A stretch of 64,000 nt of DNA from Agathobacter sp. (GCA_017409825.1 JAFQRZ010000013.1:1503-65502); one strand, 5' to 3'. Counted from the first letter of the stretch, positions 38,790 through 55,395 are shown. Translations and numbers: made by a program. Notes: a model not told the origin generated them from the letters alone.

Positions 38790-41700
38790 TTACCTCTTCC
38801 GGTTTCATTGCCATCTCAGCTTTTGCAGATTCTTCTGCGAGAGCTTTTTCTACTGCAGCCTTCTGTGCTTCAAATTTCGCAGCAGCATGCTTTGTAATTA
38901 CTTCTACAAGCTGTTTTCTAAATACATAGCCGAGTACTGCAAGGATTGCTACTATCACTAAGAAGATAACAAATCCATTTGGACCTTCTGGTTCTGCTGG
39001 TTTCGCTGCAGCATCCTTATCTTCCTCTTCTTTTTCCTGATTTGCTGGATCCAGAAGTTTGATACGCTGTTCTGCAGATACTAAATCACTATAGTTACTT
39101 ACAAGGCCCTGCTGCAGTGTAGTAGCAACCTTGTTGTATGCCATACGTGCTGCATCAACCAAAGCCTTATCTTCCCATTTTACTCGTTCAGGAATCTGCT
39201 TGATTGCATGAATTGCAGCCGCAGCAGCTTCATCTGGAGCCTGTGGTCCATCGATTCTTACATCGAAGTACTGATTCATGATATAGCTATCATAATGTTC
39301 GCCATTTACTGGACGGATTAATATGAGTTTGTCTTCTACATAACCTACATAATCTACGAAGTTTGCACCGTAGAATACGTTCGTGTACAAGCCACCTGTT
39401 ACATTCCACATGAAATATGGAACTAATCCCATACCATTAATTGCAACTTCATTTCCGTTGTAATCTGTGTATGTACCATAGTCACCAGAACCCGGAACAT
39501 GTTCGAATGAATCATAGTAGGTTGGGTCGTATTCTTCTTCTAAGATTGGAGCATTGTAGCTTCCAAGGATTACCGTATGTAATGCGTTACAGTCGAAAAA
39601 TGCTTTGTGACCGATTGCTTCTACTGTAAATGGAGCCTGAACCATTCCTACGTTACTTCCAGCAAACGCCATTGAAGTAATACGAACGGTGTCTTCTGGA
39701 ATCTTAACATCTTCTGGATTCAATCCTGTGTAGATGATAAGCTCCCATCCCATAGGTACTTTTGAGTAAAGAGAACCATCTACTACTTTTACCGTATCGC
39801 TAAGTTCAAATGTATACACTGGAACTTCTACTTTTACGTCGTTGATTTCTTCTTCACCCTTTGTACTAAATGGTGCCACCTGACACATTGCAAATGGGTT
39901 ATCACCAAGACTTACAAGGTCTTTTCCTAATGTAACCGTAACTGGTGTCATGCTTTCTTTCAAGAATGCCTGTGTACCAACCGTTTCTGTTTCAGAAAGG
40001 TCAATGTTTACGATAGAGGTATATGCAAATGCATAATCACCGATATTCTTAGCTTTTCCAAGGTTTTCTACGTTCGCAAGTGCTGCCGCGTAAGCGAATG
40101 CACCTTCCGCCATATCAGTACCTTTTTCGTTTAATTTTACATTTGTAAGGTTCTTATTGTTTACGAATGCGTATTCACCGATGTTTTCTGCCTTTGATAA
40201 ATCAGCCGCTAATAAATCATCTTCCATGAATGCGTAATCGCCAATTGTTTCAACTTTTGCAAGATTGATGTTCTGTAATGCGATACATCCGGCAAATGTA
40301 TATTCTGGAATTTCCTTAATCTCTTCGCCTAAGTTTACATTTACTAATTCTCTACAATAAGCAAATGCATACGCACCTACAGATTCTGCCGCACTCAAAT
40401 CTACGGCTGTAAGATTTGGTGCATAGTAAGTATAAATGTATGTACCTTCTGCGCTTACTGCTGCATAAGCCATCGAATCATCAAGACATACGTTGTATAC
40501 GTCACCAGAGAATGCATAATCTGCAACGGATTTTACTTTGGAAAGGTCAATGTTTGCCAAAGAATCACAGTTGTAGAATGCCATGTATCCGATTTCTGCG
40601 TTTGCACCTAAAGTTACATCTACAAGGCTTGCAGCATTTACGAAAGCATTTTCGCCAATTACTACATTCTTGCCAATGGTCAATGAAGTAAGTGCAGTTG
40701 CAAATGTATAGTAGAAACGTTTAGAACCATTTTCTTCGTAGCTATTCAATGTAAATGATTCGTCTTTGTTTGTACCAAATGCATATTTACCAAGTGTTAC
40801 GTCATTTCCAATCACTACAGTTGTAAGCTTGTCACATTCACTGAATACACCTTCTGCGATTTCCATTCTGTTTGGAATGGTAACAGATGTAATATCTGTG
40901 TAAGCAAATGCGTATTTGCCAATGTCTGTGCCTTTGCTAAAGTTAGGAAGTTCTGTAATAGGAACCTCGAAGAATGCATATTCTCCAATGTATTCCAGCT
41001 TGCCTAACTGTACATTTACTAAGCTTTCGTTCTGAGCAAATGCGTTGTCGCCTACTTCGTAAACGTTTGGTAATACAACCGAATTAATCTGTGTATTGTG
41101 CGAGAATGCACCGTTTCCTACTACTTCAATCTTATCATTTCCACCCATGTTCGCTGCTGAAAATTCACCAGTAAGGGTTGGAACTACAGCAACTAACTCT
41201 TTGCCCTTATCTGCTACGATATATTCGCCAGTAGGAGAAGAAAGTTTTCTGTTGCCTTTTGCGATTTCAAACTTCGAAATCTTGGTATCTCTGAATGCGA
41301 ATGCTCCGATTTCATTTACATCTTTTCCGATGACAACTTTTTCTAAGTTATCACATTCGTAGAACATACCTTCTGGAAGTACAGGCGCATTTACCGTGAA
41401 TTCTTTGATAGATTCACAGCCTGTAAATGCGTAGCTGCCATATTTCACTCTATCTGCTGTAATTGTGATGTCAGAAAGTTTCTTACATCCAGCAAATGCG
41501 TAGCTGCCGATAGAAATTAATGTATCGCCAGTCTTAATACCTGTTAATTTCTGGTTTCCAGCAAATGCATAATCCGAAATCATGTGAATAGAAGATAAAT
41601 CAAGTGTACCTTCTAATGCACAGTTTTCAAATGCATTCTGGTTGATAACCTTTATGTTGTTTTCATCACTGAAAGAAATCTTCTTAAGTGATGTACAGTT

Positions 41701-44700
41701 GTAGAACGCACCGTATTCAATGAATTCCAATGTGGAAGGAAGTACTACTTCTTCTAATGCAGTCAGATTTGCAAATGCATACGCACCAATCTTTTCTACA
41801 CCTTCTGGAATAATAACCTTGGTAATGGTGCCATCACCAATGAACCACTGCTTTGTCGCTTCTGCATCATCAAATGCAAGTTCTTCTGGTGTCTTCGCTA
41901 CATAATCAAAGTTTGCAAACGCAAAGTTTCCGATTTCTGTGAGTCTAAGGTCATCTGGAATCGTTACCAAACCACCAAGACCATAGTAATGTGTCAGACT
42001 TGAACCAGTCTTTACATAAGGTTCTTTTACTTCTACGGAAACATTTTCTGAGTAGTAAGTACTCTTTCCGTCCATCAACACTTTGACAGAAATGGAAGCA
42101 AAGCCTTCTTTCTGTGCCGTGATATGTCCTGTTGCATCTACCTTAACGATATTTTCGTTACTTGACTCAAATACTACTTCTGTATCATTTGGGAAGTATG
42201 CATCTAAATCGTAAGTCAAATACAAGGATTCGGATGGATACATGGTCAGTGAGTAGTTGCCTTCAAAGAAGTTCGTGCTGCCTGTATCACCGATTTTCTT
42301 ATCGTTACTATCCAGCATGTAGTATGCCTTTGTGGTATAGAAACCAGTCAAACGGAACACATCTGCTACTGGCTTGTCGTAACGTCTGTAGCCGTCATCT
42401 CCTTTTTCAAGGACGGTTACAGGGAATGTAATACTCTTATCCGTTGTAGGATCCTGAACCTTGACGATTGCGCTACCGCTTCTTACCGCTACCAATTTGT
42501 TGTTTACAACGCGAACAACGTTTGGTCTAGAAGAGCTGTATTCTAATAATTCATCCCATTCTGTAAGTGGGCTTACAATTGGGTCTAAGGAGTATACTTC
42601 ATTTGGACTAAGGGTAAGTCCTTCTGCCAAGCCTTCAAAATAGAAGTCTGTATAGTCATCTGGTAAACCGATTTCGTATGTTGCATAGTTCAACGCGTAG
42701 TCATAAACAGACAATACGAAGGAGTTACCATTCATTGCATTTTCTTTGATTTCCTGAATGTAATCGGTCAATTCGTATTTTACATACGTTGTGCCGTTAC
42801 GTTCAGAATAAATAGGTGTCATAAACTGTTCGAAGAGTTTGATTTCTGGTGTTGCATTACCATTCTCATCTTCGCCCATCATTACATAACCGAGCTGACC
42901 GGACATTGCATAATGGTTGTCATACACACCAACTTCTGCGTAAAGACGATTTTTCTTTAATGACTTGTCATACTCATAGTAATATTTTACATCGGTTACG
43001 GTCGGAGCTTCAAAGTCCATCGTAAGTGGGAACTCATACACGTTCTTTTCGTTGGTTGCTTTTCCACCATCTTTGCCGTAATCCATATAACCCTCTAAGC
43101 GAACAATGTATTCACTATTATTTGGAAGGTTGTATTCCATGGCATCAAATTCGATTTCGATATTGGCTGGATAAATCGAACCACCATCACCATAGGATTT
43201 ACGTACATCAGTATCTGTTGTCTCGAAAACAACTTCACCTGTTGTTTTATTTATAATAGAAACATCAATTCTCTGTGCGTTACGAAGGAGGCCTGCCCAT
43301 ACGTATCTAAGCGAATGAATCGTGCCATCCTGATTTGAAAGAGAAATATGTTCCATCTGAGAAGGGATATCCATATCTGCTGGATCCTGAAGGAAGTAGT
43401 AAGAACCAAGGTAGCTTACATAGTCTTCGCTTACACCACCGATTGGGCGTGTTGCATAAGCATCCGCTTTTGTCTTATCTTCTTCATCAATACCTTCATC
43501 TAATTCATCCGGATTGGTTTCATAATAGGTTAAGTCGAATAATGGAGCTTTTGTCCAATCGCCATAGAATGCAAGATAAGGAACATTCATATCTACCTTA
43601 GTACCAGATACCGCTTCTAAGGTAATGAAACCTTCTACATACATACCATTTTCAAAGGATTCATTTAAATACTTCTTATCTTCTTTGCCAAGCTTAATCT
43701 TCACTGTAACCTCTGCTGATTCTCCAGCTTTTACAGTTACTTTATTTCCACTTAACTTACCATTTTCTACTTTTACTACTTCAAAGCTAGCACCCTCTAA
43801 GATGTAAGCTTCTTCTGTAACAGTCGTTTCACCGGCGTTTGTCTTTGTCTCACTTACGCCTTCTGTAAATATATGTGCACCAAGTTCATAAGAGAGTTTT
43901 TTCTTTCCAAAGTTATTGATGGTAAATGTCATTTCGTATTTACCAGTTTTGTCTGGGTCATCACCAAGCTCAATCTTGGTTTTGTCCATTTCGTTGCCAT
44001 CGGCATCCTTTGTAGAGATGTAAGCAGTAGTTGCAAGAGCACTTGCTAAGTTAGCAAGACCTGCACCCTGTTTACGAACTGCATAAGGAGAACCATTTGT
44101 GTTCAACGCGATATCAGCAGTAGACATAAGAAGCTGATATACCAAAGCGGTTACTTTTACTTCGTCCTTTGCAATTTCAGGGAAGTTTTCTACTACATAC
44201 TGTCTTAAAAGAACTACTACACCAGCAAGGTTTGGACAAGCCATGGAAGTACCAGAAAGTCTGTCATACGTACCACCTGTTACAGCAGAAAGAATATTTC
44301 CGCCGTGCGCTGTGATTTCTGGTTTGATTCCAAGGTCTGGAGTAGGACCCCAAGATGAGAAGTCGGAAATGAAAGGACCAGAAGTCTGCTTACGTGCGAT
44401 TTCTAATGTACCTTTTTCCTTTGCTGCTAATACTTCACCATCGTCCTGTGAAATGGAACATACTGCAAGTGTTGCATCACCAACGTTCATCTTAATATCA
44501 CCGGATACATTGTTGTAAATGATGATACCAGCAGCCCCCTGCTCCTGTGCGATGATTGCTTTTTCTTCGAATGTATTAGAACCACGACGTACTAATACGA
44601 TTTTGCCTTTTACATCCAAGCCCGTGTAGTCGGCACTACGACCAACACCAGGGATAGTTACGTACTCAATCTTGATTTTGTCTTCTTCACCAAGCAATGT

Positions 44701-46068
44701 ATCAAAGAAGCTATTTTCTTCTGTGCCACCATCGGTAGACTCTGTGAAGTAAATAATTTCTCCATTGTATAACATATATGGTGTCTTAGTACCACTGATA
44801 GAAGCAACTGACATCGTTCCTTCATAAGTACCTGGAGAACCAACAGTACCTGTATCAGGGTTTGATGTAAGACCTAAGTTACCATTTGCTTCTGAACCAT
44901 AAGCAGAGCTGTAGCTGTTTGAAGCAGCAACGATAACGCTGATACCGGCTTCACGAATCTTATCATAAACACCATTTAAGATTTCTTCGTCTGATTCACG
45001 GCTGAAACCACAAGCAGTACCAAGTGACATATTGATTACGTCAACGCCAAGTACTACACAGTCTTCTAACGCTGCAAGAATCCATTCCGAACGAGCAGTG
45101 TCCATAACGTCAGAGAAAATCTTCATCGCTACCAACTGTGCATTTGGTGCAACACCAGTGATAGTGTCATCCTTACCAACGATAACACCAGATACGTGAG
45201 TACCATGGTTGTTGTGTGTTGAGTATGGATCTGGATCTTCATCTGCATAGTCAAATCCGAATGGAACTTTTTCATTAATATATACATCATCCACAGAAAG
45301 ACCTTCCACCATCGTGCTGGCAACTGTATCTCTCAAAACCTTCTTTACGTCATTGTAAGTAAGGCCAAGTGTTTTCGATGTAAAATTATCCACAGAAAAT
45401 GCAGAGTGGTTAGAATCCAAACCAGTATCCAAAACAGCTACTACCATACCAGAACCATCATAGCCTGAATCGGAGCTGTCAAAAATACCTGTATCTTCGT
45501 AAATGCTTACGGAGTTTTCTACAAGCTCTGTTTTGCAGGATTTGTACTCTTCACCAACGATTGCACTTTCACCATCCTTTAATACGGAACAGGTAGAAGC
45601 GAAATCACCAGCTTTGATGGTTACTGCAAAACCACTCAGCAATGTGTTGTAATCTTCACCAACAGTATATTCTACTCCAAGCTCATCTAATCTTGAAAGA
45701 ATATCTGCTTTCTTTTCATTGATGTCTGCCGTAATCTTTGCAGCATCTTCACTCTCAAGAGCATAATCTTTGAAGCTCATACTCTTGTCTGTGTCTTCAT
45801 AAGCTTCCATGATGGTGGTGTTATCTACAGTAATAATAACTGAGATTTCATCCTCATTGGTCACACCATCTGGCAAACGAAGCACAACGGAATTATCCAA
45901 ATAGTCGGAATAATCCACTTTCAGATCCTCAAGCTTTTCAATGAAGGAAGCCGAGAATTCTGAATCTGCAGCAAGTGCTGTCACAGGCAGCATCTGTGCT
46001 ACAAGACCGAAGATTAAAAGATATGCAAATGCAGATCTCATAATCTTTGCAAATGTGTTTCTTTTCAT
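38767..46068 (-). CDS. giant cell-envelope S8 serine protease (PrtP/C5a-peptidase-like) with PA insert, Big_2 domains, BspA-type LRR array and C-terminal TM anchor
   Basis: 2433 aa. Signal peptide. VAVLDTGLDSNH (D), HNNHGTHVSG (H), SGTSMACPNLAG (S). PA-domain GKIVLVRRGSNTFEEKAIIAQEQGAAGIIIYNN. Many IGxYAFxxCxxL LRR units. C-terminal FVIFLVIVAILAVLGYVF plus charged tail. No LPXTG. Confidence 0.9.
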   Translation of the reverse strand: MKRNTFAKIMRSAFAYLLIFGLVAQMLPVTALAADSEFSASFIEKLEDLKVDYSDYLDNSVVLRLPDGVTNEDEISVIITVDNTTIMEAYEDTDKSMSFKDYALESEDAAKITADINEKKADILSRLDELGVEYTVGEDYNTLLSGFAVTIKAGDFASTCSVLKDGESAIVGEEYKSCKTELVENSVSIYEDTGIFDSSDSGYDGSGMVVAVLDTGLDSNHSAFSVDNFTSKTLGLTYNDVKKVLRDTVASTMVEGLSVDDVYINEKVPFGFDYADEDPDPYSTHNNHGTHVSGVIVGKDDTITGVAPNAQLVAMKIFSDVMDTARSEWILAALEDCVVLGVDVINMSLGTACGFSRESDEEILNGVYDKIREAGISVIVAASNSYSSAYGSEANGNLGLTSNPDTGTVGSPGTYEGTMSVASISGTKTPYMLYNGEIIYFTESTDGGTEENSFFDTLLGEEDKIKIEYVTIPGVGRSADYTGLDVKGKIVLVRRGSNTFEEKAIIAQEQGAAGIIIYNNVSGDIKMNVGDATLAVCSISQDDGEVLAAKEKGTLEIARKQTSGPFISDFSSWGPTPDLGIKPEITAHGGNILSAVTGGTYDRLSGTSMACPNLAGVVVLLRQYVVENFPEIAKDEVKVTALVYQLLMSTADIALNTNGSPYAVRKQGAGLANLASALATTAYISTKDADGNEMDKTKIELGDDPDKTGKYEMTFTINNFGKKKLSYELGAHIFTEGVSETKTNAGETTVTEEAYILEGASFEVVKVENGKLSGNKVTVKAGESAEVTVKIKLGKEDKKYLNESFENGMYVEGFITLEAVSGTKVDMNVPYLAFYGDWTKAPLFDLTYYETNPDELDEGIDEEDKTKADAYATRPIGGVSEDYVSYLGSYYFLQDPADMDIPSQMEHISLSNQDGTIHSLRYVWAGLLRNAQRIDVSIINKTTGEVVFETTDTDVRKSYGDGGSIYPANIEIEFDAMEYNLPNNSEYIVRLEGYMDYGKDGGKATNEKNVYEFPLTMDFEAPTVTDVKYYYEYDKSLKKNRLYAEVGVYDNHYAMSGQLGYVMMGEDENGNATPEIKLFEQFMTPIYSERNGTTYVKYELTDYIQEIKENAMNGNSFVLSVYDYALNYATYEIGLPDDYTDFYFEGLAEGLTLSPNEVYSLDPIVSPLTEWDELLEYSSSRPNVVRVVNNKLVAVRSGSAIVKVQDPTTDKSITFPVTVLEKGDDGYRRYDKPVADVFRLTGFYTTKAYYMLDSNDKKIGDTGSTNFFEGNYSLTMYPSESLYLTYDLDAYFPNDTEVVFESSNENIVKVDATGHITAQKEGFASISVKVLMDGKSTYYSENVSVEVKEPYVKTGSSLTHYYGLGGLVTIPDDLRLTEIGNFAFANFDYVAKTPEELAFDDAEATKQWFIGDGTITKVIIPEGVEKIGAYAFANLTALEEVVLPSTLEFIEYGAFYNCTSLKKISFSDENNIKVINQNAFENCALEGTLDLSSIHMISDYAFAGNQKLTGIKTGDTLISIGSYAFAGCKKLSDITITADRVKYGSYAFTGCESIKEFTVNAPVLPEGMFYECDNLEKVVIGKDVNEIGAFAFRDTKISKFEIAKGNRKLSSPTGEYIVADKGKELVAVVPTLTGEFSAANMGGNDKIEVVGNGAFSHNTQINSVVLPNVYEVGDNAFAQNESLVNVQLGKLEYIGEYAFFEVPITELPNFSKGTDIGKYAFAYTDITSVTIPNRMEIAEGVFSECDKLTTVVIGNDVTLGKYAFGTNKDESFTLNSYEENGSKRFYYTFATALTSLTIGKNVVIGENAFVNAASLVDVTLGANAEIGYMAFYNCDSLANIDLSKVKSVADYAFSGDVYNVCLDDSMAYAAVSAEGTYIYTYYAPNLTAVDLSAAESVGAYAFAYCRELVNVNLGEEIKEIPEYTFAGCIALQNINLAKVETIGDYAFMEDDLLAADLSKAENIGEYAFVNNKNLTNVKLNEKGTDMAEGAFAYAAALANVENLGKAKNIGDYAFAYTSIVNIDLSETETVGTQAFLKESMTPVTVTLGKDLVSLGDNPFAMCQVAPFSTKGEEEINDVKVEVPVYTFELSDTVKVVDGSLYSKVPMGWELIIYTGLNPEDVKIPEDTVRITSMAFAGSNVGMVQAPFTVEAIGHKAFFDCNALHTVILGSYNAPILEEEYDPTYYDSFEHVPGSGDYGTYTDYNGNEVAINGMGLVPYFMWNVTGGLYTNVFYGANFVDYVGYVEDKLILIRPVNGEHYDSYIMNQYFDVRIDGPQAPDEAAAAAIHAIKQIPERVKWEDKALVDAARMAYNKVATTLQQGLVSNYSDLVSAEQRIKLLDPANQEKEEEDKDAAAKPAEPEGPNGFVIFLVIVAILAVLGYVFRKQLVEVITKHAAAKFEAQKAAVEKALAEESAKAEMAMKPEEVSENETEN

Positions 46069-46163: not shown

Positions 46164-46294
46164 AATTTGCAAGTAATCCCATGCCGTTTTGTTATATTTT
46201 TCATAATTTAATTTTATACTAGGTTTTCCTATAATTTACTTTCTTTCACTCATGTGATATACTTACTAGACAAACTTCTACGGAGGAAACATAT

Positions 46295-47065
46295 ATGACG
46301 AAAGAGTCCACGATGCGATTCCATCGCATTTATAACATTCTATTCAGTATCGTTATTATCATCGCCGGCATCTGCCTAATCATCGGTGTGTTGACGATAT
46401 ACAACTCAGGCGACCAGCCTTTTTCAAGAGAAAGCGTAGCCGCTACCTTCTCTACCATTGCTTTCCCAGTGTATCTGACATTGGTGATGGCGGTAATCAG
46501 CTTTATCTGGGAAATCATTTCCCCTTCTGATAAGGAAAAAACGCCAAAGGCAAAGGACTATCCTGCACTGCTCGCTAACCTTTATGAAAAGAAAGACTTT
46601 TCGAGTGGCGAACCTGCTATCCAGGAAGAAATTCATACCCTTTGGAAGAACAGAAAAATGCACACTATCATTCGTACCATTGTATTAGTGGTATGCAGCG
46701 CAGTCTTCTTATTCTATGCATTGAATAGTGCCAACTTCCACCAAAGCGAAATCAACGGTTCTATGATTCAAGCCATGAAGGTATTAGTTCCATGCTTCCT
46801 GATTGCCTTTGCGTATGCACTGTTTGTTGCAATCCATAACGAAAAAAGCATGGAAAAAGAAATGGAGCTTGTGAAGAAACTTCCAAGTGTTTCTGATGCA
46901 ACAGAAAATGAAATCATAACAGAAGAAAAACGTCTCAGTCCTTATCGCAACGCAATCCTTGTTGTAGCGATTATCCTGGTCGTTTATGGATTTTTAAATG
47001 GCGGTACGATTGATGTATTGGCAAAAGCCATCAACATCTGTACCGAATGTATTGGATTGGGGTGA
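46295..47065 (+). CDS. polytopic membrane protein with C-terminal CXXC tail
   Basis: 256 aa. At least 5 hydrophobic segments. Ends ...GGTIDVLAKAINICTECIGLG. GGAGGA RBS. 5 nt upstream of the next gene. Confidence 0.7.
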   Translation: MTKESTMRFHRIYNILFSIVIIIAGICLIIGVLTIYNSGDQPFSRESVAATFSTIAFPVYLTLVMAVISFIWEIISPSDKEKTPKAKDYPALLANLYEKKDFSSGEPAIQEEIHTLWKNRKMHTIIRTIVLVVCSAVFLFYALNSANFHQSEINGSMIQAMKVLVPCFLIAFAYALFVAIHNEKSMEKEMELVKKLPSVSDATENEIITEEKRLSPYRNAILVVAIILVVYGFLNGGTIDVLAKAINICTECIGLG

Positions 47066-47070
47066 TATAA

Positions 47071-48546
47071 ATGGGAAAATTAGTTCAAAAGATAAAAGAC
47101 CTTATGCCTAGCAAGCGCAAATGGATTCAGTTATATACCGCATTGCTCTACAATGCAAATCTGAAAGGTTTCGTACAAGGCAGTATTTACAAAGGAAACT
47201 CCAAGATACTCTGTGCGCCAGGTATCAACTGCTACTCCTGTCCTGGTGCAGTAGCAGCCTGTCCGCTCGGTTCTTTACAAGGTGCTATCAGCTCTGACAA
47301 GAGCACACTTTGGTATGTTGGTGGCATTCTCCTACTGTATTCCATTTTATTCGGAAGAATGATTTGTGGATGGCTTTGTCCATTCGGTTTCATTCAGGAG
47401 CTTGTGTACAAAATCAAAACACCAAAGATGAAAAAGAACAAAGTGACACGATTGCTTTCATATCTAAAATACGTTATTCTCGTATTCTTCGTATTTATCG
47501 TACCGATTACTTACGCATTTCGTGACACTCCTCTTCCAGCCTTCTGCAAATACATTTGTCCAGCAGGCACATTAGAAGGTGGTATGATGCTTCTCTCAAA
47601 CAAAGTAAATGCCAGCTACTTCTCCATGTTGGGACCTATTTTTACTTGGAAATTCCTCCTCATGGTAAGTATCATGGTCGGATGTGTATTCATCTTCCGT
47701 TTATTCTGCCGTTTCCTTTGTCCGCTCGGTGCACTGTATGGATTGTTCAACAAGCTATCCTTCTTCGGTGTCAAAGTGGAAGAACATAAATGCGTCAACT
47801 GTAACCTTTGTGTCAACCATTGTAAGATGGATGTCAAAAAGGTCGGCGACCAGGAATGTATCAGTTGTGGCGAATGTATCAATGTCTGCCCAACCGATGC
47901 CATCCAATGGAAAGGCTCTGGGCTTCTTCGCAAGAATCATAGCATGGATGACCATCCAGAAGAAACCAAAAAAGCTCGCAATACCACGCGCGCGATTACT
48001 ACTATCGCAATGCTGGCATTACTTATCGGTGTCATCGCTTACTACTGGCAGACCACGCCAGACTATGTACAGCCGGCGGAAGGCAACCAGGTCGGCGATA
48101 CCTGCTACAGTTACGATTTGACCCGCGTTGACGGTACTGGCATTTTAGAAGGCACCACCATCAACCCTGTCGAAACTGGCAAAATCACCATCATCAACTT
48201 CTGGGGAACCTGGTGTACACCATGTGTCAACGAATTGCCATATTTCGACCAGATTGCAACCAACTACGCAGATGACGTAACTGTCATCGCTGTTCATACT
48301 GACATGATTGCAGACACTGCACCGGCCTATATCGCAGGACATTATCCAGATTCCAACATCCTTTTCGCAAAGGATGACCCTAGCGATGGTGGAACAGCAG
48401 AAGTTTACTACTCTGCTCTTGGTGGTCGCGACACCTACCCATACACCGTAGTTCTCGACGAACACGGCGTCATCGTAAAAATCTTCTTCGAAGCATTACA
48501 TTATGAAGATTTGGAAGCGGTAGTGGAACAGGAATTGGAAAAATAA
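47071..48546 (+). CDS. NapH/NosR-like membrane polyferredoxin fused to a C-terminal TlpA-type thioredoxin domain
   Basis: 491 aa. CYSCPGAVAACP. Three CX3CP motifs (CGWLCPFG, CKYICPAG, CRFLCPLG). CVNCNLCVNHC and CISCGECINVCP. Extra TM, then INFWGTWCTPC thioredoxin fold. Confidence 0.8.
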   Translation: MGKLVQKIKDLMPSKRKWIQLYTALLYNANLKGFVQGSIYKGNSKILCAPGINCYSCPGAVAACPLGSLQGAISSDKSTLWYVGGILLLYSILFGRMICGWLCPFGFIQELVYKIKTPKMKKNKVTRLLSYLKYVILVFFVFIVPITYAFRDTPLPAFCKYICPAGTLEGGMMLLSNKVNASYFSMLGPIFTWKFLLMVSIMVGCVFIFRLFCRFLCPLGALYGLFNKLSFFGVKVEEHKCVNCNLCVNHCKMDVKKVGDQECISCGECINVCPTDAIQWKGSGLLRKNHSMDDHPEETKKARNTTRAITTIAMLALLIGVIAYYWQTTPDYVQPAEGNQVGDTCYSYDLTRVDGTGILEGTTINPVETGKITIINFWGTWCTPCVNELPYFDQIATNYADDVTVIAVHTDMIADTAPAYIAGHYPDSNILFAKDDPSDGGTAEVYYSALGGRDTYPYTVVLDEHGVIVKIFFEALHYEDLEAVVEQELEK

Positions 48547-48590: not shown

Positions 48591-48624
48591 ATCTTAAAAT
48601 ATATTTTAATGGAGAATGAATCAC

Positions 48625-48951
48625 ATGAATAATGAACCAAAAGAAAGCTACGGAGCACGAATCAAGGACTTGAGAATTGAGATGGGAATGACCCAGAACC
48701 AGGTCGCAGAAGCCTTGAGTGTGACACCTGGATATATCTGTAATGTAGAGAACAATCGAACTGCTATGTCGCTCCGCATCCTCACCTACTTTGCGAAACT
48801 GACGGGCAAAACCATCGACGAACTCGTCGGGCAGCTCGAACCCGAATACCGCAATGATTCCCTCGACAACGCCCTTATGGAGCAAATTCGCCAGATGGAC
48901 GAAAAAACAAAGCAAAAGCTTTTGAATACCATTGAGTTGTGGAATGAGTAG
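48625..48951 (+). CDS. XRE-family helix-turn-helix transcriptional regulator
   Basis: IKDLRIEMGMTQNQVAEALSVTPGYICNVENNRT HTH. Start moved from 48616 to ATG 48625, because GGAGA abuts 48616 and sits 9 nt from 48625. Confidence 0.8.
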   Translation: MNNEPKESYGARIKDLRIEMGMTQNQVAEALSVTPGYICNVENNRTAMSLRILTYFAKLTGKTIDELVGQLEPEYRNDSLDNALMEQIRQMDEKTKQKLLNTIELWNE

Positions 48952-48957
48952 AAAACC

Positions 48958-48989
48958 AAATCCGTTAGGCTAAGCCTAGCGGATTTTTC
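48958..48989 (+). terminator. rho-independent terminator
   Basis: Stem aaatccgttaggc / gcctagcggattt (one G-U pair), followed by TTTT. Confidence 0.75.
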
Positions 48990-49094
48990 TGTTATAATAA
49001 GAAAAAAGTCGCGTATTGCATACTTCTATTTATTTAACAAATTCTATTGCTATACTTTTTGTACAATACAAATTATATTCAAAGGAGAAACTAT

Positions 49095-50276
49095 ATGACA
49101 AAAAGTAAAAAACTACAACGAGCCTTAAAAGAACCAATTTCTAGAAACGAAGCACTTCAAAGGATACAATCCGATCCAGAAGCATATTCCAAATTTATCG
49201 AGTTTCCAAATGAGCACCAAGAAAAAATCTTAGAATTTATTCAAGGCTCACGAGGTCTTCCCATCGTCTATGATCCATTCTTCAAAAAAATCTTCAATCC
49301 AATCGAAAAACCTGAACGATTGGAACGCTTTCTCTCCTGTCTTATGAATCAAAAGATTCAAATTATTAATGTCATTCCCCGTGAAGGAACGCAAATGATC
49401 GAGAAGGGCTCCTTTGTTGTAATGGACGTATTGGTCCAAACAGAGGATGGCAGTTACATCAATGTCGAAATGCAAAAATATGGATATAAATTCACTGGTG
49501 AGCGAAGCACTTGTTATATGTCCGACCTTGTCATGCGTCAGTATACAAAGATAAAAGCAGAAAAGGAAAAAGCCTTTTCTTTTAATGACATGAAACCAGT
49601 TTATCTTATCGTCCTAATGGAAGAAAGTAGCAAAAATTTCAAAAAAGTAGCACCTTCGTACATCCATCATGCCCAATACGTATGTGATACAGGAGCAGAA
49701 ATCAACTTCTTAGCAAACTATACCTATATCTCACTTGACATCTTTCATTCTGTAAGTCACAATATAAATAGTTACTTAGATGCATGGCTTACCTTCTTAA
49801 GTTCAGATTCGCCAGATGATATCATAAAACTCCTTGATGCTTATCCTGAATTCGAAGAATATTACCATGACATCGCCATTTTCCGCACAAAACCAAAGGA
49901 GTTGATGAACATGTATTCAGAAATTTTAGCACAAATGGATCGAAACACAGAACGTTTGATGATTGAAGAAAAACAACAGGAAATTGAAAAGCTATCCCTG
50001 GAAATCGAAGAAAAAAAACAAGAAATCAAAGAAAAAGCACAGGAAATTGAAGAAAAAACACAGGAAATCAAAGAAAAAGCACAGGAAATTGAAGAAAAAA
50101 CACAGGAAATTGAAGAAAAAACACAGGAAATTGAAGAAAAAACACAGGAAATTGAAGAAAAAACACAGGAAATTGAAAAACAGTCACTTGAAATCAAAAG
50201 TATTCACAAAGAGCTTTCTGAAAAAGATGCTTACATCAAGGAACTTGAAATGAAACTAGCACAAAAAAACGGATGA
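49095..50276 (+). CDS. PD-(D/E)XK nuclease family putative transposase (Rpn-like) with C-terminal heptad tandem repeats
   Basis: FVVMDVLVQTEDGSYINVEMQKYGY nuclease core. AAAGGAGA RBS before ATG 49095 (the track start 49047 is unsupported). C-terminal EEKTQEI repeats. Confidence 0.75.
   Translation: MTKSKKLQRALKEPISRNEALQRIQSDPEAYSKFIEFPNEHQEKILEFIQGSRGLPIVYDPFFKKIFNPIEKPERLERFLSCLMNQKIQIINVIPREGTQMIEKGSFVVMDVLVQTEDGSYINVEMQKYGYKFTGERSTCYMSDLVMRQYTKIKAEKEKAFSFNDMKPVYLIVLMEESSKNFKKVAPSYIHHAQYVCDTGAEINFLANYTYISLDIFHSVSHNINSYLDAWLTFLSSDSPDDIIKLLDAYPEFEEYYHDIAIFRTKPKELMNMYSEILAQMDRNTERLMIEEKQQEIEKLSLEIEEKKQEIKEKAQEIEEKTQEIKEKAQEIEEKTQEIEEKTQEIEEKTQEIEEKTQEIEKQSLEIKSIHKELSEKDAYIKELEMKLAQKNG
49965..50195. 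repeat. 11 x 21-bp in-frame tandem repeat (4 identical central units)
   Basis: Unit gaagaaaaaacacaggaaatt. Identical copies at 50091, 50112, 50133, 50154. Flanking units are degenerate and alternate with aaagaaaaagcacaggaaatt. Confidence 0.95.
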
Positions 50277-50298
50277 GACCTAAGTCTCATCCGTTTTA
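50266..50298. terminator. bidirectional rho-independent terminator between convergent genes
   Basis: 13-bp stem aaacggatgagac (50266-50278) / gtctcatccgttt (50283-50295). A-run upstream and T-run downstream. Overlaps the TGA stop at 50274-50276. Confidence 0.85.
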
Positions 50299-50326
50299 TT
50301 TTGTCATCTAATCTTCTATCCAAGAA

Positions 50327-53300
50327 TTAGAATTCTTTTTTTCTCATAACAACGCTACCAGCGATTGCAGCTGCACCAAGTGCAAGAACTGCGAACCAAA
50401 GAGCGAAGTTTGTTGAATCACCTGTCTGAGGAACATCAACGTCAACTTTTTCTGTTAAAAGAACGTAGTCTGAGCAGTGTTCCTGAGTAACACTTACTTT
50501 ACCATCAACTACTTTTGCATCACAGATGTATTTCAATGTACCATCTGCTAAAATCTGATGATAGTATAATGTTTCAATCTTCTTTTCAATGATTGATGCT
50601 GGAACTTCAATTGTAATAGCTGCTTTTCCAGGAAGCTTACCTTCATGTGAGAATTCTACTTTTAATACGAAGTTCTTGTCAGTAATCTTATCGTTCTTAG
50701 CTACTGTTTCGTCTTTTACATCTTCTACAACGTTTACAGTTAAGTTGAGTTCGATTTCATCGTTTTCTTTTAATTCGTTTGGATCGAATGTCATTGTAAC
50801 TTTATCACTTGTCGTAGGAAGTTCAAGTGGAGCTTCATCCTTGATAGCCTGTTCGATGTGTTCGTCTAAGTATTCTTTGTCAACTACTACATCTTTACCT
50901 TCTTCTGGAGTTGGAAGTGGAACAACAACTGTGTTGTCTGCTTCTTCATCTTCTGTTCCAGGAACATAGTAGCAAGCGAACATCCAAGCATCATCTTCTG
51001 TGAATCCAAGGAATCCATCTTCACCATACCAGCCAGCATAAGCACCAGCATTCTTTAAGATGGTTACTAAATCTGTTGTTAATGGATATAAACCATCTTT
51101 GTTTGCTGCTGCAACATATTCTAATACTGCATCATTGTAGTTAATCTTTGCAATGATTTCGCCATCTTCTGTGATGTATTCAACAATCTTTCCTAAACCA
51201 GCTGCATCTGCTAATGACATAATGCTATCATTTAAATCTACATAAAGGATAGGGCCATTTGCAGAATTTAAGTGGTAGAAACCATCTTTACCAAGAACAG
51301 CTGTATCAACTTCTGTATCTTCTACATCTACATATTCAAGACCTTCTAAAACAGTTTCGAATTTTTCTGGTGTTACAGTATTTTCATAAACTGTCCATTC
51401 TACTTCTTCTTTCACTTCTGCTGCTTTGTATGAAACAGTTACATCAACTTTTGTTGTTCCTTCAGCAGCAGTTAAACCTACTAAGAATGTCTGACCTACA
51501 GAAGTGCATTCAATACTTACTGTATTTGTAGCATTTTCTGTAATCTTGTTAGGGAATGATGGAGTATTCCAATTTTCTACCTTAACTCCTGTTGGAGCAG
51601 TAATTGTGTATGTACCTACTTTGTCAGGTGTTAATTCGAAAAGAGTTGTAACAACTGTAGTATCTAATGTAACTGAGCCTGTTACAATTGCTTCATATTT
51701 TCCAGCATCATTTGCATTTGTTGCTGGTTTTGTAGTTGGTTTTTCTTCTTCTTTTTCAGCACCTTCTTCAAATGTTGCTGTAAAATCAACGGTAGTGCTT
51801 GAGTAAGCCTTCACAACAATAACGTCACCTTTCTTAACTGCAGTAACATTTGTTGTTTTGTTTGTACCACGCTCTAATGGTTCACCATTCAATTCGTATG
51901 CATATACATTTTTGAAATTATCTGCATCTTCTTCACTAATTACAAGTGTTAACACACCATCAGCTGTAGCTGTGAATGTGTAGTAAATATTGTCATAATT
52001 ACATGTTGCTGTATATTTACCATTTGTAGTAATTTCAAATGGTTTTTCATAAGTTCCATCTGGAGCATTCGTTGAGCCACCTTCTCCACCTTCTGTTGTT
52101 GCTGGAGCTAATGAAACTCTATAATTCTGACTTGATTCTGTGTTATTTACAGCTACAAAATTAATTGTACTACTAGTTCTTGGAGAAACAACTTTTACCT
52201 TTGCTGTACCATTTGTATCTGCTGTTTCAATCATATTTGGATTCAAATCTTCATAAGTTCCAACTACAAAACCTGTAGCACCAACTACTGTCAAATCATA
52301 TTCGCCTGGAGTAGCTAAAACTGAGAAGTAATATGTTGCACCAGGAGCAACTGTAATAGTAGAAGCTGTACCATTAGTTGCAAGTGTAGTATTTGGTGCA
52401 TCCTCTGTACCAACTACTGGTGTTGGATCTGGATTAGGTGTTGTACCTGTACCAGTTCCTGATGTGAAAGCAAATGTCCAATTTACAGTACCTGCATACT
52501 GAGTATATGGATCCTCTGCATTATATGTGTTAATTTCAATATTAACAATTTCACCTGCTGCTACCGAAATACTTGTTGAAGCATTAATAGTTTCATCTCC
52601 AGAAGTATAACGTTCACCATAATTTCCAGCATCATAGTTGGCTACTAAATAATTCCAACCTGTTGTATTATTTTCTGTGTCCATTGTTACAGTCACAGTT
52701 CCGGCCTGAGTAGCTGTCCACTGATAATAATATCCTGTCTGTCCAGTAACAATTTCAGCTGTATTTTCACCAACTACTGGAGTTTCCTGAGAACCATAGG
52801 TTCCTGTTGCAACAGCATGAGCAAAATCAAGTTCAATTGCTGCATCCGAAGAGTTAATAATTGAATAACTATATTCAGGCTGACTAAAATATACCTTTAA
52901 AGCACCATTTACAGCAGAAAGATCAACGCCTGGATCCCACCACTGACCATTACCTGCAACATAGAATCTAAATGCATCAGTTGTCTCTCCAGTTACGTTA
53001 AGGATATATTCTCCTTCAAGTGCTGGTTTGCTTACGAAATACATTGTTGCACCTGCAGGAATCGTCTGCGTAACTTCTGATTCAACAACCACTGGATTTA
53101 ATTCTGTACCTACCGCCGGAGCGTCAATTGTTTCTGTTGTAATTTTATATGTAACAACTTCACCTTCTGGAGCATAAACCTGAACATAAACAGTCTGGTC
53201 TGGAGCAACATCTAAAGTCATTGATGAAGCATTTGCAGTCTCAGAAGAATAGTAATCCTGTCCTAAATACACTTCCCAATTTTCGCCCGTTTCAATTGTT

Positions 53301-54478
53301 ACTGTTACTCGAGTCCAATCTGTTGTGATAATTTCTGTATTATCTGGTGTATAAGAATTCTTAGCCTCAAATCCCTTAGAATCAGCAACACCATCTGCCG
53401 CAACAAAACCAAGCGTCCAGTTAACTGTACCTTCAACCATCGGTTGTGGCCAGCTCATTGAATTCTGATCAAAAGCTGTGCCAATCATAATATCCACAAC
53501 GTCTCCGGCACTTACAGTAAATGTTTCTGTTGCAACTATCTCATCATCATCACTCGTATGCTCATCACCATATTTAGATGCAGCAATATTATCTACTCTA
53601 TACAGCCAAGCATCTGTTTTTGTTGTATCAATAGCAACTGTAACCGTTCCTGCCTCTGGAGCAACCCATTGATAGTAATATCCTGAATATGCAGAATCAA
53701 TCTCTACTGTATTTTCACCAACATCTGGTGTATCAGGATAATTAGTGGTCGCACCAACAACACTATCAATAGTAAAGTTAAGCACAACATCGTTGGCTCC
53801 TGTATTAATTACTTGATACGAATAAGATGGATTATATTCGGTATCGATTGAAAAAATAGGACTCTTCAATGTTGCATCTACCGCATTAATTTCAGTAGCA
53901 GGATTCATCATTCCACTTCCTGGAATATAGAATTTGAAGCTATCTGACGCAGCACCACCTTCAATAGTTAATCTGTAGTCACCATTTGAATATGGCATAG
54001 TCTTAAAATACATTGTTGCACCAGCATCAATTGTAACTTCTTGATCCCAACTAACTTCCTTTGGGTTTAACTCAGACCCCTCTGCTGGAGCCTCAATTGT
54101 TTCTGTTGTAATACTGTATGTAACAGTTCCATTCTCAGCACCTACATACATCTGTACATATACTTCAGAATCTGGTGCTACATCATAAGTCTGTGTCGTT
54201 GCATCACTCGCAGAACTTGAATACTGAACACTACTCTGTCCTTGATTAATACAAAAATCCCAACCATCACTAGCACTTTCGATTGTAACTGTAATACGTG
54301 TCCAATCTGTTGTGGTAATTTCAGTATTATCTGGCGACCATGTATTCTCTGCTGTATATTCTTTTGAATCCACAACAGTTGTAACACCATCTTCAGCAAA
54401 TACTGTCATTGGTAAAAGTGATGCTACCATCATTACTACTAATGCTAAGCTCATCACTTTTTTCATGATTTTTTTCAT
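50327..54478 (-). CDS. sortase-anchored cell-wall surface protein with duplicated beta-sandwich modules
   Basis: 1383 aa. Signal peptide MKKIMKKVMSLALVVMMVASLLPMTVFA. C-terminal VPQTG (50420-50434) plus hydrophobic stretch plus RKKEF sorting signal. Confidence 0.85.
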   Translation of the reverse strand: MKKIMKKVMSLALVVMMVASLLPMTVFAEDGVTTVVDSKEYTAENTWSPDNTEITTTDWTRITVTIESASDGWDFCINQGQSSVQYSSSASDATTQTYDVAPDSEVYVQMYVGAENGTVTYSITTETIEAPAEGSELNPKEVSWDQEVTIDAGATMYFKTMPYSNGDYRLTIEGGAASDSFKFYIPGSGMMNPATEINAVDATLKSPIFSIDTEYNPSYSYQVINTGANDVVLNFTIDSVVGATTNYPDTPDVGENTVEIDSAYSGYYYQWVAPEAGTVTVAIDTTKTDAWLYRVDNIAASKYGDEHTSDDDEIVATETFTVSAGDVVDIMIGTAFDQNSMSWPQPMVEGTVNWTLGFVAADGVADSKGFEAKNSYTPDNTEIITTDWTRVTVTIETGENWEVYLGQDYYSSETANASSMTLDVAPDQTVYVQVYAPEGEVVTYKITTETIDAPAVGTELNPVVVESEVTQTIPAGATMYFVSKPALEGEYILNVTGETTDAFRFYVAGNGQWWDPGVDLSAVNGALKVYFSQPEYSYSIINSSDAAIELDFAHAVATGTYGSQETPVVGENTAEIVTGQTGYYYQWTATQAGTVTVTMDTENNTTGWNYLVANYDAGNYGERYTSGDETINASTSISVAAGEIVNIEINTYNAEDPYTQYAGTVNWTFAFTSGTGTGTTPNPDPTPVVGTEDAPNTTLATNGTASTITVAPGATYYFSVLATPGEYDLTVVGATGFVVGTYEDLNPNMIETADTNGTAKVKVVSPRTSSTINFVAVNNTESSQNYRVSLAPATTEGGEGGSTNAPDGTYEKPFEITTNGKYTATCNYDNIYYTFTATADGVLTLVISEEDADNFKNVYAYELNGEPLERGTNKTTNVTAVKKGDVIVVKAYSSTTVDFTATFEEGAEKEEEKPTTKPATNANDAGKYEAIVTGSVTLDTTVVTTLFELTPDKVGTYTITAPTGVKVENWNTPSFPNKITENATNTVSIECTSVGQTFLVGLTAAEGTTKVDVTVSYKAAEVKEEVEWTVYENTVTPEKFETVLEGLEYVDVEDTEVDTAVLGKDGFYHLNSANGPILYVDLNDSIMSLADAAGLGKIVEYITEDGEIIAKINYNDAVLEYVAAANKDGLYPLTTDLVTILKNAGAYAGWYGEDGFLGFTEDDAWMFACYYVPGTEDEEADNTVVVPLPTPEEGKDVVVDKEYLDEHIEQAIKDEAPLELPTTSDKVTMTFDPNELKENDEIELNLTVNVVEDVKDETVAKNDKITDKNFVLKVEFSHEGKLPGKAAITIEVPASIIEKKIETLYYHQILADGTLKYICDAKVVDGKVSVTQEHCSDYVLLTEKVDVDVPQTGDSTNFALWFAVLALGAAAIAGSVVMRKKEF
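52457..54370. repeat. tandem duplication of an approximately 310-330-aa coding module
   Basis: Residues 37-365 (53384-54370) and 366-674 (52457-53383) align end to end (e.g. PDNTEI(T/I)TTDWTR(I/V)TVTIE, GYYYQW, GTVNWT). Divergent at DNA level. Confidence 0.85.
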
Positions 54479-54715
54479 GATATTTTCCTCCTTTATCTTT
54501 TCATCACATAATCATTCGTATTTCTTATAAAACATCTTCGATTAGCAGGATTTCGTCAATGTTTTCATATAAACACTTTTCCATAATCACATGATAACAT
54601 TGACAATATAATAACACTTTTAAAAATTGTACGCAATAAAAAACATGAATTTTTTGTTAATTTTTTACCATATTATTCATAATTTGCACTTATACCATGC
54701 ATTTTCCACTAAAAT

Positions 54716-54743
54716 ACCCCATCCAACTTTCTTTGGATGGGGT
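54716..54743 (-). terminator. stem-loop / probable terminator after the decayed Rpn-like gene
   Basis: 11-bp stem accccatccaa / ttggatggggt, followed on the minus strand by AUUUUAGUGG. Confidence 0.5.
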
Positions 54744-54752
54744 AATGTCATT

Positions 54753-55395
54753 TTATCTATTCCCTCTACATTTCTTTACAACCTCTACCTCCGCTTCAAA
54801 CTTTTCTGTCATTGGTATATTAAATTCATTCTCTGTCTCTTTCTCATTTTTCCCAAGACAAACCATGATTACACTCACCAAGTCATAGTATTCTTCTATT
54901 TCTTTTACCTTACCGACATGATGTTTTTCTGTCAAGGAATATAGCTCGTTTGACAAGCGGATATCCTGGATGAAAGTCATTCTGAGCCTCTACATTAATA
55001 ATCATCTGTACCACTTCACTTGAATTTGGTACAATAGCACGAAACTTAATATCGTATGTAATACTACCTTCTGTCATCATAGCATCTTCCACGCCTGTAC
55101 CGGTAATTTTCGGTGAATTAGTTTCATCTGGCAATACTTTTGTCTCTGCCACCTCCGGCTTCCTCATCATACTTTTCTTTCTGCTGCACAATATCAATGC
55201 TCTGAATTCTACCAATTGGATAAACTCTTGAAACCGAGATATGATTCTTGATATCTGACAATACTCCTCTGTCAGACATGGACGCCTCCTGCATCTGACA
55301 CTATATGAGCTACACATAGCTTCTATAACAAAATCTAATTTTTGTTCAAAAATTTGTAGAGCCTCTACAAATTCTACTCCTCTGTTTTCGTGCAC
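54753..55395 (-). pseudogene. frameshifted/truncated PD-(D/E)XK (Rpn-like) nuclease gene
   Basis: ORF 54910-55395 contains ITYDIKFRAIVPNSSEVVQMIINVEAQNDFHPGYPLVKRAIF (nuclease core), then stops. The continuation (YDLVSVIMVCLG...) lies in another frame as ORF 54753-54980. The first 75 residues look non-genic. Confidence 0.65.

Follow-up and report, generated by a model that had tools for sequence, protein, structure and literature searches.

How do fermentative anaerobes supply the thioredoxins on their outer surface with reducing power? Exported thioredoxins are thought to depend on thiol relays of the CcdA/DsbD type. A stretch of 64,000 nucleotides (nt) from Agathobacter sp. (GCA_017409825.1 JAFQRZ010000013.1:1503-65502)—hereafter the window, whose first letter is the origin of all coordinates given below—raises this question with two plus-strand genes at 46295-48546. 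An initial annotation had read them as a CXXC-tailed membrane protein and a NapH-like polyferredoxin fused to an external thioredoxin, and had proposed that they might carry reductant across the membrane without CcdA or DsbD. Here, we show that a polyferredoxin core, a transmembrane (TM) module of the CD1871A type with a CXXC motif, and an exported ResA/TlpA-type thioredoxin constitute a three-part set, whose members occur nearly always together—either as separate genes or fused to each other. Seen in this way, the pair probably represents a single redox unit of the membrane, through which reducing equivalents would leave the cytoplasm for the thiols of extracytoplasmic proteins.

Architecture of the gene pair

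Gene 2 (47071-48546, 491 amino acids (aa)) comprises a NapH-like polyferredoxin core, a fifth TM helix, and a thioredoxin domain. It starts 5 nt downstream of gene 1 (46295-47065, 256 aa), both being plus-strand open reading frames (ORFs) just as first delineated, and each is equipped with a Shine–Dalgarno sequence of its own—GGAGG 8 nt 5' of the gene 1 ATG and GGGGTGA 5' of the gene 2 ATG. In gene 2, Pfam recognizes three stretches of Fer4_5 (PF12801), scoring 60.1 bits where 22 is the cut-off, as well as a Fer4 dicluster and, at residues 367-477, Redoxin/Thioredoxin. As a multi-helix membrane protein above the gathering score, it belongs to the Fer4_5 "NapH-like" superfamily. The assignment of the core to the NapH family in the initial annotation holds at this superfamily level and not at that of the family itself, as the scores stay below the NapH/MauN cut-offs (77 bits versus 213.05 for TIGR02163 and 59.8 versus 234 for NF007013), with the NapH model covering residues 76-281 only.

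The core is marked by a series of cysteine motifs, all of which had been listed beforehand, are found in their places, and are invariant in homologues. An N-terminal four-cysteine motif, C48-x5-C54-x2-C57-x6-C64-P (47212-47265), lies in the first predicted outer loop in a region of low AlphaFold2 confidence. CX3CP motif 1 (CGWLCP, residues 99-104, 47365-47382) is situated at the cytoplasmic end of helix 77-96 and aligns to CSWVCP of NapH; motif 3 (CRFLCP, residues 213-218, 47707-47724) correspondingly follows at the cytoplasmic end of helix 188-209 and aligns to CGHICP. Motif 2 (CKYICP, residues 159-164, 47545-47562), which falls into the second predicted outer loop, has no counterpart among the NapH cysteines. 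Two CxxCxxCxxxC ferredoxin motifs—CVNCNLCVNHC at residues 241-251 and CISCGECINVCP at residues 263-274—define a predicted cytoplasmic domain with two [4Fe-4S] clusters (47791-47892), which is matched by Pfam Fer4, Fer4_7, and Fer4_16 and by polyferredoxins of the PDB. In alignments reaching down to 34-36% identity, 18 of the 18 core cysteines are invariant, and so is the CxxC of the thioredoxin domain; among fused forms this extends to the whole pattern W381-C-x-x-C-x-x-E-L-P. Solved relatives of the CX3CP membrane core itself were found neither by PDB sequence search nor by Foldseek, which returned matches to the ferredoxin and thioredoxin parts only.

A fifth TM helix (residues ~305-327, 47983-48051), recognized by hydropathy and modeled by AlphaFold2 as helix 296-328, is preceded by a K/R-rich linker and joins the iron–sulfur (Fe-S) domain to the predicted extracytoplasmic thioredoxin domain (48088-48543; Pfam Redoxin, Thioredoxin, and AhpC-TSA). 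The active site WGTWCTPC occupies residues 378-385, with WCTPC at 48214-48225, followed by E388-L-P390 and a candidate cis-proline, P457. Hence, the domain bears the W-C-x-x-C, the downstream Glu-x-Pro, and the cis-Pro loop of TlpA/ResA/DsbE-type proteins. In direct alignment, NFWGTWCTPCVNELPY of gene 2 corresponds to NFWGTWCKPCEKEMPY of ResA, WCTPCVNELP to WCKPCEKEMP of ResA, and P457 to the cis-proline of 3kcm. Foldseek matches the domain to ResA, Etrx1/2, StoA, and CcmG, with target-normalised TM-scores of 0.75-0.85 to ResA and Etrx. These alignments and structural matches place the domain in the ResA/TlpA type, as had been proposed from its WCxxC motif, with scores below the cut-offs of the named equivalogs (53.1 versus 170 for ResA, 39.7 versus 210 for StoA, 38.5 versus 230 for TlpA, and 29.7 versus 123 for DsbE). 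A peroxiredoxin was considered and rejected: the AhpC-TSA matches reflect the TlpA-like fold, and the active site is WCxxC and not the peroxidatic PxxxTxxC.

Gene 1 has five hydrophobic segments and ends in AINICTECIGLG. Its residues 220-256 (46952-47062, plus strand), which comprise the last TM helix and the tail GGTIDVLAKAINICTECIGLG with the CXXC at 47039-47050, match positions 2-38 of the 38-position NCBIfam model NF040920, "CD1871A family CXXC motif-containing protein," with 40.3 bits against a cut-off of 32. With 256 aa the protein is outside the format of the small stand-alone CD1871A proteins (~40-60 aa), for the module makes up the C terminus only and is preceded by a four-helix extension. 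The search returned 545 homologues of gene 1, and the tail DVLxKAINICTECIGLG is invariant in the alignment made for gene 1.

A three-part module

Two samples of loci were compared: 80 of the fused type, taken from species-representative genomes, and 82 with a stand-alone core. Directly upstream of the fused gene, a same-strand ORF ending in C-x-x-C-[IV]-G-x-G is present in all 80 loci, in 61 of them in the long gene 1 form of at least 240 aa. The stand-alone cores have a CD1871A-type ORF directly upstream in 78 of 82 loci, here as a protein of 44-60 aa with a K/R-rich N terminus, one helix, and the pattern RGExxxVLxKAIxxCxECxGIG; in two of the remaining loci this ORF lies ~2 kb off, and from the other two the upstream sequence is missing. 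The initial annotation had assigned ICxECIGxG tails to a small CXXC protein family neighboring 4Fe-4S proteins in clostridia, and had suggested a search for the same fusion and gene pair across Firmicutes; the NF040920 match and the near-exceptionless pairing with the polyferredoxin bear this out.

The third member becomes apparent in the unfused loci. A thioredoxin-fold CxxC protein is encoded in the flanks of 62 of the 82 stand-alone cores; in 59 cases its gene shares the strand of the core and lies no more than 1.7 kb away, and most of these 59 ORFs begin with a lipobox or Sec-type signal (40 by filter, most of the others on inspection). Since the thioredoxin is a separate, adjacent, and exported gene product in these loci, the module is three-part, and its thioredoxin would be extracellular. 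The minimal set is illustrated by Clostridium lundense: its thioredoxin lipoprotein has 189 aa, an LTACG lipobox, and the sequence WGTFCKPC, its CXXC peptide MKTKIRMFLFTIGISFIGFGMYRGEVNTVLTKAINICLECIGIG has 44 aa, and its core has 277 aa; the RefSeq annotation of Peptoclostridium acidaminophilum holds the same trio. Because its parts occur unfused as three components elsewhere, the pair of the window can be read as a derived form, in which an added helix came to link the thioredoxin to the core, and four N-terminal helices extend the CXXC module.

All of the 120 best database matches to gene 2 (57-89% identity) combine Fer4_5 with a thioredoxin-type domain, and some bear two thioredoxin domains. 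At E <= 1e-30, gene 2 is matched by 469 clusters (representatives clustered at 50% identity), and species-representative genomes contain at least 600 matches. The closest homologues of the pair carry the names Agathobacter and Roseburia, indicative of a Lachnospiraceae host; hosts of the fused type include Oscillospiraceae, Lachnospiraceae, Christensenellales, Borkfalkiaceae, Anaeroplasma, and Faecalibacillus, and the host range takes in dominant human-gut and rumen Clostridia. Stand-alone cores of 275-300 aa are annotated as "4Fe-4S binding protein," "polyferredoxin," or "ferredoxin-type protein NapH." Judged by these matches, the gene 2-type fusion is common, and the module is widespread in gut Clostridia.

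A few loci deviate in their gene structure. In four fused-type loci (L057, L063, L073, and L076), core (~300-340 aa) and thioredoxin (184-210 aa) are separate, slightly overlapping ORFs, either because the gene has truly split or because of frameshifts in metagenome-assembled genomes. Among the core homologues, no protein was found in which the CXXC tail is naturally joined to the N terminus of the core—an arrangement that would constrain the topology—although the two genes are always adjacent; four homologues (P0257, P0269, P0075, and P0241) have N-terminal extensions of their own with 2-4 hydrophobic helices unrelated to the CD1871A tail. In Crassaminicella indica (CP078093, L081 5328-5855), an exported thioredoxin lipoprotein is encoded next to the CD1871A gene and core. 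An in-frame TGA occupies precisely the position of its first active-site cysteine (NIWATG-U-GAC), and 8 nt downstream there begins a hairpin with GGU as its apical loop (-14.9 kcal/mol, z = -2.1). The protein is a candidate selenocysteine (UxxC) variant of the thioredoxin of the module.

Membrane topology

By its helix count, gene 2 had been expected to hold its Fe-S domain inside the cell and its thioredoxin domain outside. Loop charges, taken over 117 sequences, fit this arrangement: the loop after CX3CP motif 1 (net +2.9) and the segment of CX3CP motif 3 and the ferredoxin domain (net +5.5) are predicted inside, and the charge-neutral loop with CX3CP motif 2 (net -0.1) and the strongly acidic thioredoxin part—on average 30 Asp and Glu versus 8.7 Lys and Arg—are predicted outside. 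More decisive for an extracellular thioredoxin is the lipobox or Sec signal of the unfused homologues. Together, both lines of evidence support the predicted orientation.

For gene 1, hydropathy and the K/R-rich loops 72-124 and 182-220 suggest an N-in, C-out orientation, which is also predicted for the 44-aa CXXC forms, consisting of MKTKIR, the TM helix, and the tail. In both cases the CXXC tail would hence be exposed at the outer face.

Structure prediction of gene 2 depended on the alignment. With 43 close homologues, AlphaFold2 reached a predicted local distance difference test (pLDDT) score of 62, leaving the membrane core unusable, and with a deeper alignment the mean pLDDT rose to 85. 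The resulting model contains helices at residues 77-94, 124-149, and 188-207; the thioredoxin domain is mostly above 90 (block means 80-98), and residues 31-60 range from 53 to 64. If residues 15-36 cross the membrane like the first helix of NapH, the N-terminal four-cysteine motif would be located outside.

Proposed mechanism

The hosts of the module are largely quinone-poor fermenters, mostly Clostridia. For these, we propose a path in which a low-potential cytoplasmic donor—probably reduced ferredoxin—would reduce the two [4Fe-4S] clusters of the ferredoxin domain, from which electrons would pass to a center that CX3CP motifs 1 and 3 build on the inner side of the membrane. They would then reach a center at the outer face, made up of the N-terminal C-x5-C-x2-C-x6-CP and CX3CP motif 2, to which the gene 1 tail would add its two cysteines. 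This outer center would reduce the WCTPC disulfide of the thioredoxin domain, which in turn might reduce its clients; plausible ones are the co-conserved surface proteins with thioredoxin domains at 59284-63948. The eight predicted outer-face cysteines, six of the core and two of the partner, that face an exported thioredoxin would accordingly appear as the hallmark of this family.

Ten core cysteines outside the ferredoxin motifs and two of the tail amount to twelve, enough for three further [4Fe-4S] clusters. They might either ligate clusters, giving a wire that ends in a site like that of ferredoxin:thioredoxin reductase, or act as redox-active dithiols in a DsbD-like cascade; we regard the latter as an equally open sub-mechanism, by analogy with DsbD, and it avoids the problem of assembling Fe-S clusters at the outer face. 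In ferredoxins, a proline often follows the terminal cluster-ligand cysteine, and several of the twelve cysteines directly precede proline. Together with a possible split ferredoxin motif—C-x2-C of the partner and C-x3-C-P of the core—this favors additional Fe-S clusters, albeit without proving them. The reductase character of the module is supported by the ResA-type active site and by the matches to ResA, Etrx1/2, StoA, and CcmG.

Several points weigh against this proposal. Direction of electron flow, cofactor content, and donor are inferred, and a CcdA encoded elsewhere in the genome may be the real reductant, as the survey covers the window and the flanks of the related loci. The Fe-S wire version is weakened by the fact that no route is known by which a membrane protein inserted via Sec acquires Fe-S clusters at its outer face. 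The first helix (residues 15-36) is only weakly hydrophobic (mean Kyte–Doolittle +0.24) and is modeled by AlphaFold2 as short broken helices; consequently, the outside placement of the four-cysteine motif relies on homology to the topology of NapH rather than on a clear-cut prediction. Within the reach of comparative genomics, the interpretation given by the initial annotation is supported; its central functional claim, an outward electron flow that makes CcdA/DsbD dispensable, is what we infer from these comparisons.

A bolder version, which we consider doubtful, would describe core and CXXC partner as a transmembrane ferredoxin:thioredoxin reductase. It would possess a wire of five [4Fe-4S] clusters, one of them split across subunits (C-x2-C of the partner and the outer-loop C-x3-C-P of the core), and an extracytoplasmic Fe-S/disulfide end site. 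It would be the main reductant export route of anaerobic Firmicutes in place of CcdA/DsbD, and here it would power extracellular disulfide reduction with the giant S8 protease and the Opp transporter of the neighborhood for protein foraging.

If the proposed unit operates, it would provide bacteria with a second way to move reductant across their membrane, chemically unlike the thiol relays, and would explain how fermentative, quinone-poor anaerobes keep their surface thiols reduced. From the comparative data, a minimal system can be defined, consisting of the thioredoxin lipoprotein, the CXXC peptide of 44 aa, and the core of 277 aa (as in C. lundense), together with the 12 key cysteines.

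Alternative explanations

Electrons might also run in the opposite direction. The module would then be a disulfide-forming system of anaerobes, like DsbA with DsbB or VKOR, whose thioredoxin oxidizes clients and whose polyferredoxin takes the electrons inward to a cytoplasmic acceptor. Fusions of VKOR with thioredoxin are known in oxidative systems, the neighboring giant secreted proteins could need disulfides, and sequence alone leaves the direction unfixed. However, the active site WC[TG]PC with its ResA-type Glu-x-Pro and the best structural matches are those of reductases and not of DsbA, electron transfer from a thiol/disulfide couple to ferredoxin-type clusters is normally uphill, and the hosts are strict anaerobes in a reducing habitat. 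Hence, we regard a reverse flow as improbable.

A similarly low probability is given to a scenario in which a CcdA or DsbD from elsewhere in the genome reduces the thioredoxin domain, and in which polyferredoxin and CXXC partner sense or regulate this domain or accept electrons from a thioredoxin-dependent extracytoplasmic reaction. It draws on the 64 kb of genome examined, on a two-component system beside the stand-alone modules in 53 of 82 loci, which would fit signaling, and on TlpA/ResA-type proteins being classical clients of CcdA/DsbD (PMC8238504; Etrx structures). Within the window, none of the Pfam-scanned ORFs (34 of the 40 listed) contains a CcdA/DsbD domain, in line with the initial annotation, and the only polytopic proteins that resemble CcdA in size are a prepilin peptidase and PilC. 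The neighborhood survey—~2 Mb of flanking DNA around the 162 loci, with flanks of <=10 kb—yielded 43 polytopic ORFs of this size, among which recurrence is limited to an Opp permease in three loci. The sequence [ST]PC[VIL]xP, which we take to be the CcdA/DsbD signature, is absent from all 43. A CcdA-like gene thus does not recur beside the ~160 modules. The parts occur fused, and across deep divergence the three genes are linked near-universally; both findings speak for electrons passing directly between the parts. Moreover, the six extra outer-loop cysteines would have no obvious purpose otherwise.

Metal handling appears far less probable. The cysteine-rich outer face and the thioredoxin would then serve to reduce or transport a metal, for instance Cu(II), like the related polyferredoxin CcoG and TlpA–ScoI, for which speak a weak NCBIfam similarity to CcoG (E = 1.3e-7, 30.9 bits), the role of TlpA in copper-site assembly, and the metal-binding potential of cysteine motifs as such. 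Yet, the CcoG score is far under its cut-off of 316.7, copper or other metal transport and oxidase genes are absent from the window and from the recurrent neighbors, and the hosts are anaerobes devoid of haem-copper oxidases. Hardly credible, finally, is an inverted topology with a cytoplasmic thioredoxin domain, i.e., a membrane-tethered cytoplasmic Fe-S/thioredoxin enzyme: the poorly hydrophobic first helix and the ambiguity of a helix count alone would allow it, but it would put the K/R-rich loops and the ferredoxin domain outside, and it conflicts with the lipoprotein or Sec signal of the unfused homologous thioredoxin and with the strongly acidic nature and exported ResA/TlpA type of the domain. 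A role in cytochrome c maturation was rejected as well, as the window contains no ccs, res, or ccm genes.

Relation to known systems

The preferred reading, a reductant-exporting membrane unit, has one of its closest parallels in NapH of the NapGH quinol dehydrogenase. Gene 2 and E. coli NapH share 24% identity by direct alignment, in which CX3CP motifs 1 and 3 (C99/C103 and C213/C217) and the full set of eight ferredoxin cysteines correspond and are invariant. E. coli NapH lacks the four N-terminal cysteines and both cysteines of motif 2, and these six extra cysteines of gene 2 fall in the two loops that are periplasmic in NapH, which possesses four TM domains with its Fe-S clusters at the cytoplasmic side (PMC5449189). 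Like gene 2, NapH, NosR, and PceC combine a Fer4_5 membrane core with a C-terminal cytoplasmic domain of two [4Fe-4S] clusters and are proposed to pass electrons through the membrane to an extracytosolic redox protein (PMC8238504). The module differs from such NapH-like systems by its obligatory CD1871A partner, its third CX3CP motif, and the thioredoxin as acceptor. Neither napG/napA nor other nap, nos, pce, or mau genes are present in the window or among the recurrent neighbors, and Pfam scans of gene 2, of the scanned window ORFs, and of the locus representatives did not detect an FMN-binding domain or ApbE. In PMC8238504, NapH-like proteins are described as transmembrane electron carriers to flavinylated domains, and DsbD with thioredoxin-like proteins is covered as well; a NapH-like protein paired with a thioredoxin is not described there. 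The module can accordingly be viewed as a predicted NapH-like membrane electron carrier with a TlpA/ResA-type thioredoxin as extracytosolic partner and an obligatory CXXC peptide.

A precedent in terms of domain order is the NapH–NapG fusion, whose fifth TM domain is Tat-dependent (Tooke et al. 2017, PMC5449189): a four-helix core with cytoplasmic Fe-S clusters is followed by a helix and an exported redox domain. In gene 2, by contrast, the exported domain is a cofactor-free thioredoxin, and the fifth helix is strongly hydrophobic and lacks a twin-arginine motif (direct reading of residues 296-327), for which reason its insertion should need Sec/YidC only. Twin-arginine translocation (Tat) of the Fe-S domain was considered as well and rejected, because direct reading, compared with the rule in PMC5449189, shows no twin-arginine motif ahead of helix 188-209 or of helix 305-327.

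With the CcdA, DsbD, and ScsB pathways, which feed exported TlpA, ResA, StoA, Etrx, and CcmG thioredoxins, the module shares the predicted end point—an extracytoplasmic thioredoxin of the ResA/TlpA type with CxxCxxExP, anchored or a lipoprotein, that must be re-reduced across the membrane—and the linkage of membrane component and thioredoxin by operon or fusion. The membrane part itself is different, being a Fer4_5 polyferredoxin with two ferredoxin-type clusters, ten further invariant cysteines, and a separate CXXC TM peptide; a DsbD/CcdA TM domain is matched in neither gene 1 nor gene 2 by Pfam or NCBIfam. With such a polyferredoxin, the likely donor would be an Fe-S or ferredoxin pool and not cytoplasmic thioredoxin.

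In ferredoxin:thioredoxin reductase and HdrB-type Fe-S disulfide reductases, which are soluble cytoplasmic enzymes, one-electron Fe-S carriers reduce a disulfide beside a cluster. The module has the proposed chemistry alone in common with them, and Pfam, NCBIfam, and PDB searches gave no match of the pair to these families.

The gene set as such is already known from a bioRxiv study of November 2025 (PMC12637426), and the small protein has been named by NCBI. That study reports a "previously uncharacterized" operon of gut Clostridia that encodes a 4Fe-4S protein with 3-4 TM segments, a TlpA, and a CxxC protein—the same gene set as in the module. The stool abundance of this unfused operon predicted immune-related adverse events of checkpoint therapy in melanoma patients, which is why a mechanism would have immediate users. 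Its authors speculate that the operon reduces extracellular targets; the paper contains no mechanism, NapH link, topology, or cysteine analysis. The form in the window differs by being fused, both between thioredoxin and core and between CXXC module and four-helix extension, and by its linkage to giant surface proteins instead of a two-component system. In the literature searched, we found no mechanism, topology, NapH link, or biochemistry for the module and nothing on CD1871A itself; a search for CcdA together with polyferredoxins returned nothing relevant, and for Fer4_5/PF12801 it led to PMC8238504 only.

Genomic neighborhood and candidate clients

Two further TlpA-type domains, which the initial annotation had suggested as possible clients, are real. 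The first belongs to a 208-aa thioredoxin lipoprotein with the active site NCGPC on the minus strand (59284-59910; Pfam AhpC-TSA and Redoxin), which is ResA-like, has a lipobox FVACG as read from the sequence, and is a candidate client or relay. The second occupies residues 138-257 of a 921-aa anchored protein (61183-63948, minus strand), in which an Ig-like domain, the ResA-like thioredoxin domain with invariant C176, C179, and E182, and a C-terminal region of ~650 aa are combined; for the latter, Pfam, NCBIfam, and PDB profiles gave no relatives. Homologues of the 921-aa protein, down to 24% identity, lie within 10 kb of the pair in 24 of the 80 fused-type loci, which makes it the most widely co-conserved neighbor. 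This synteny supports the earlier idea that the gene 2 fusion serves distant TlpA-type proteins, in particular thioredoxin domains of the 921-aa type, as its putative clients. Two motifs of this protein, "DGxYH..NGPxL" and "W..(L/F).CYY," recur in its 408-aa (59928-61154) and 1383-aa (50327-54478) neighbors.

In other genomes (L006, L010, L012, and others), the thioredoxin/lipoprotein cluster directly adjoins the pair. In the window, genes for an HTH_3 regulator, a PD-(D/E)XK transposase-like protein with EIEEKTQ repeats, the 1383-aa surface protein—which has a VPQTG-type sorting signal at its end—and an Rpn-family nuclease (48616-56601) are located in between and look like an insertion of ~10 kb.

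On the other side, separated by the 226-nt intergenic region 5' of gene 1, a divergent gene on the minus strand (38767-46068) encodes a 2433-aa surface protein with S8 subtilase, PA, Fn3, and BspA-type leucine-rich repeat domains (Pfam), which is syntenic in the closest relatives and is given here as context only. Within this intergenic region, a promoter-like site on the plus strand (TTTACT-17-TATACT with TG, 46235-46263) is weakly suggested by a consensus scan only. An S8-domain homologue is found beside the pair in 15 of the 80 fused-type loci. The minus-strand segment 30639-46068 comprises an Opp-type ATP-binding cassette (ABC) transporter, whose family-5 binding protein is unusually long (858 aa), a lipoprotein (443 aa) of unassigned family, and the 2433-aa S8 protein; Opp transporter, lipoprotein, and S8 protein appear to form one unit, which in the closest relatives stands in synteny with the pair. 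It is tempting, though speculative, to connect protease, Opp transporter, and reductase to a reduction of extracellular disulfides in host or dietary proteins—that is, to protein foraging. A second S8 peptidase is encoded at 6941-8680.

The stand-alone modules (L081-L162) are embedded differently, with an OmpR-type response regulator beside 53 and a histidine kinase beside 49 of the 82, mostly in divergent orientation. An FtsX-type ABC transporter also flanks them in two cultured Clostridia. For C. difficile, CD18710 has been reported within a conjugative transposon and CD1871 as an ABC permease, in reports that are not about the module itself. These surroundings suggest that the unfused module is an inducible, possibly mobile, stress or resistance cassette.

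The remainder of the window, in which no Rfam family reaches its gathering score over the whole 64 kb, includes a type IV pilus cluster on the minus strand (9327-24885) with PilM, the prepilin peptidase, PilC, two T2SSE ATPases, and several pilin-like genes, among them one for a 2039-aa protein with the prepilin-type N terminus AFTMMEMLITVAV. GC skew is negative across the window, matching the predominance of genes on the minus strand.

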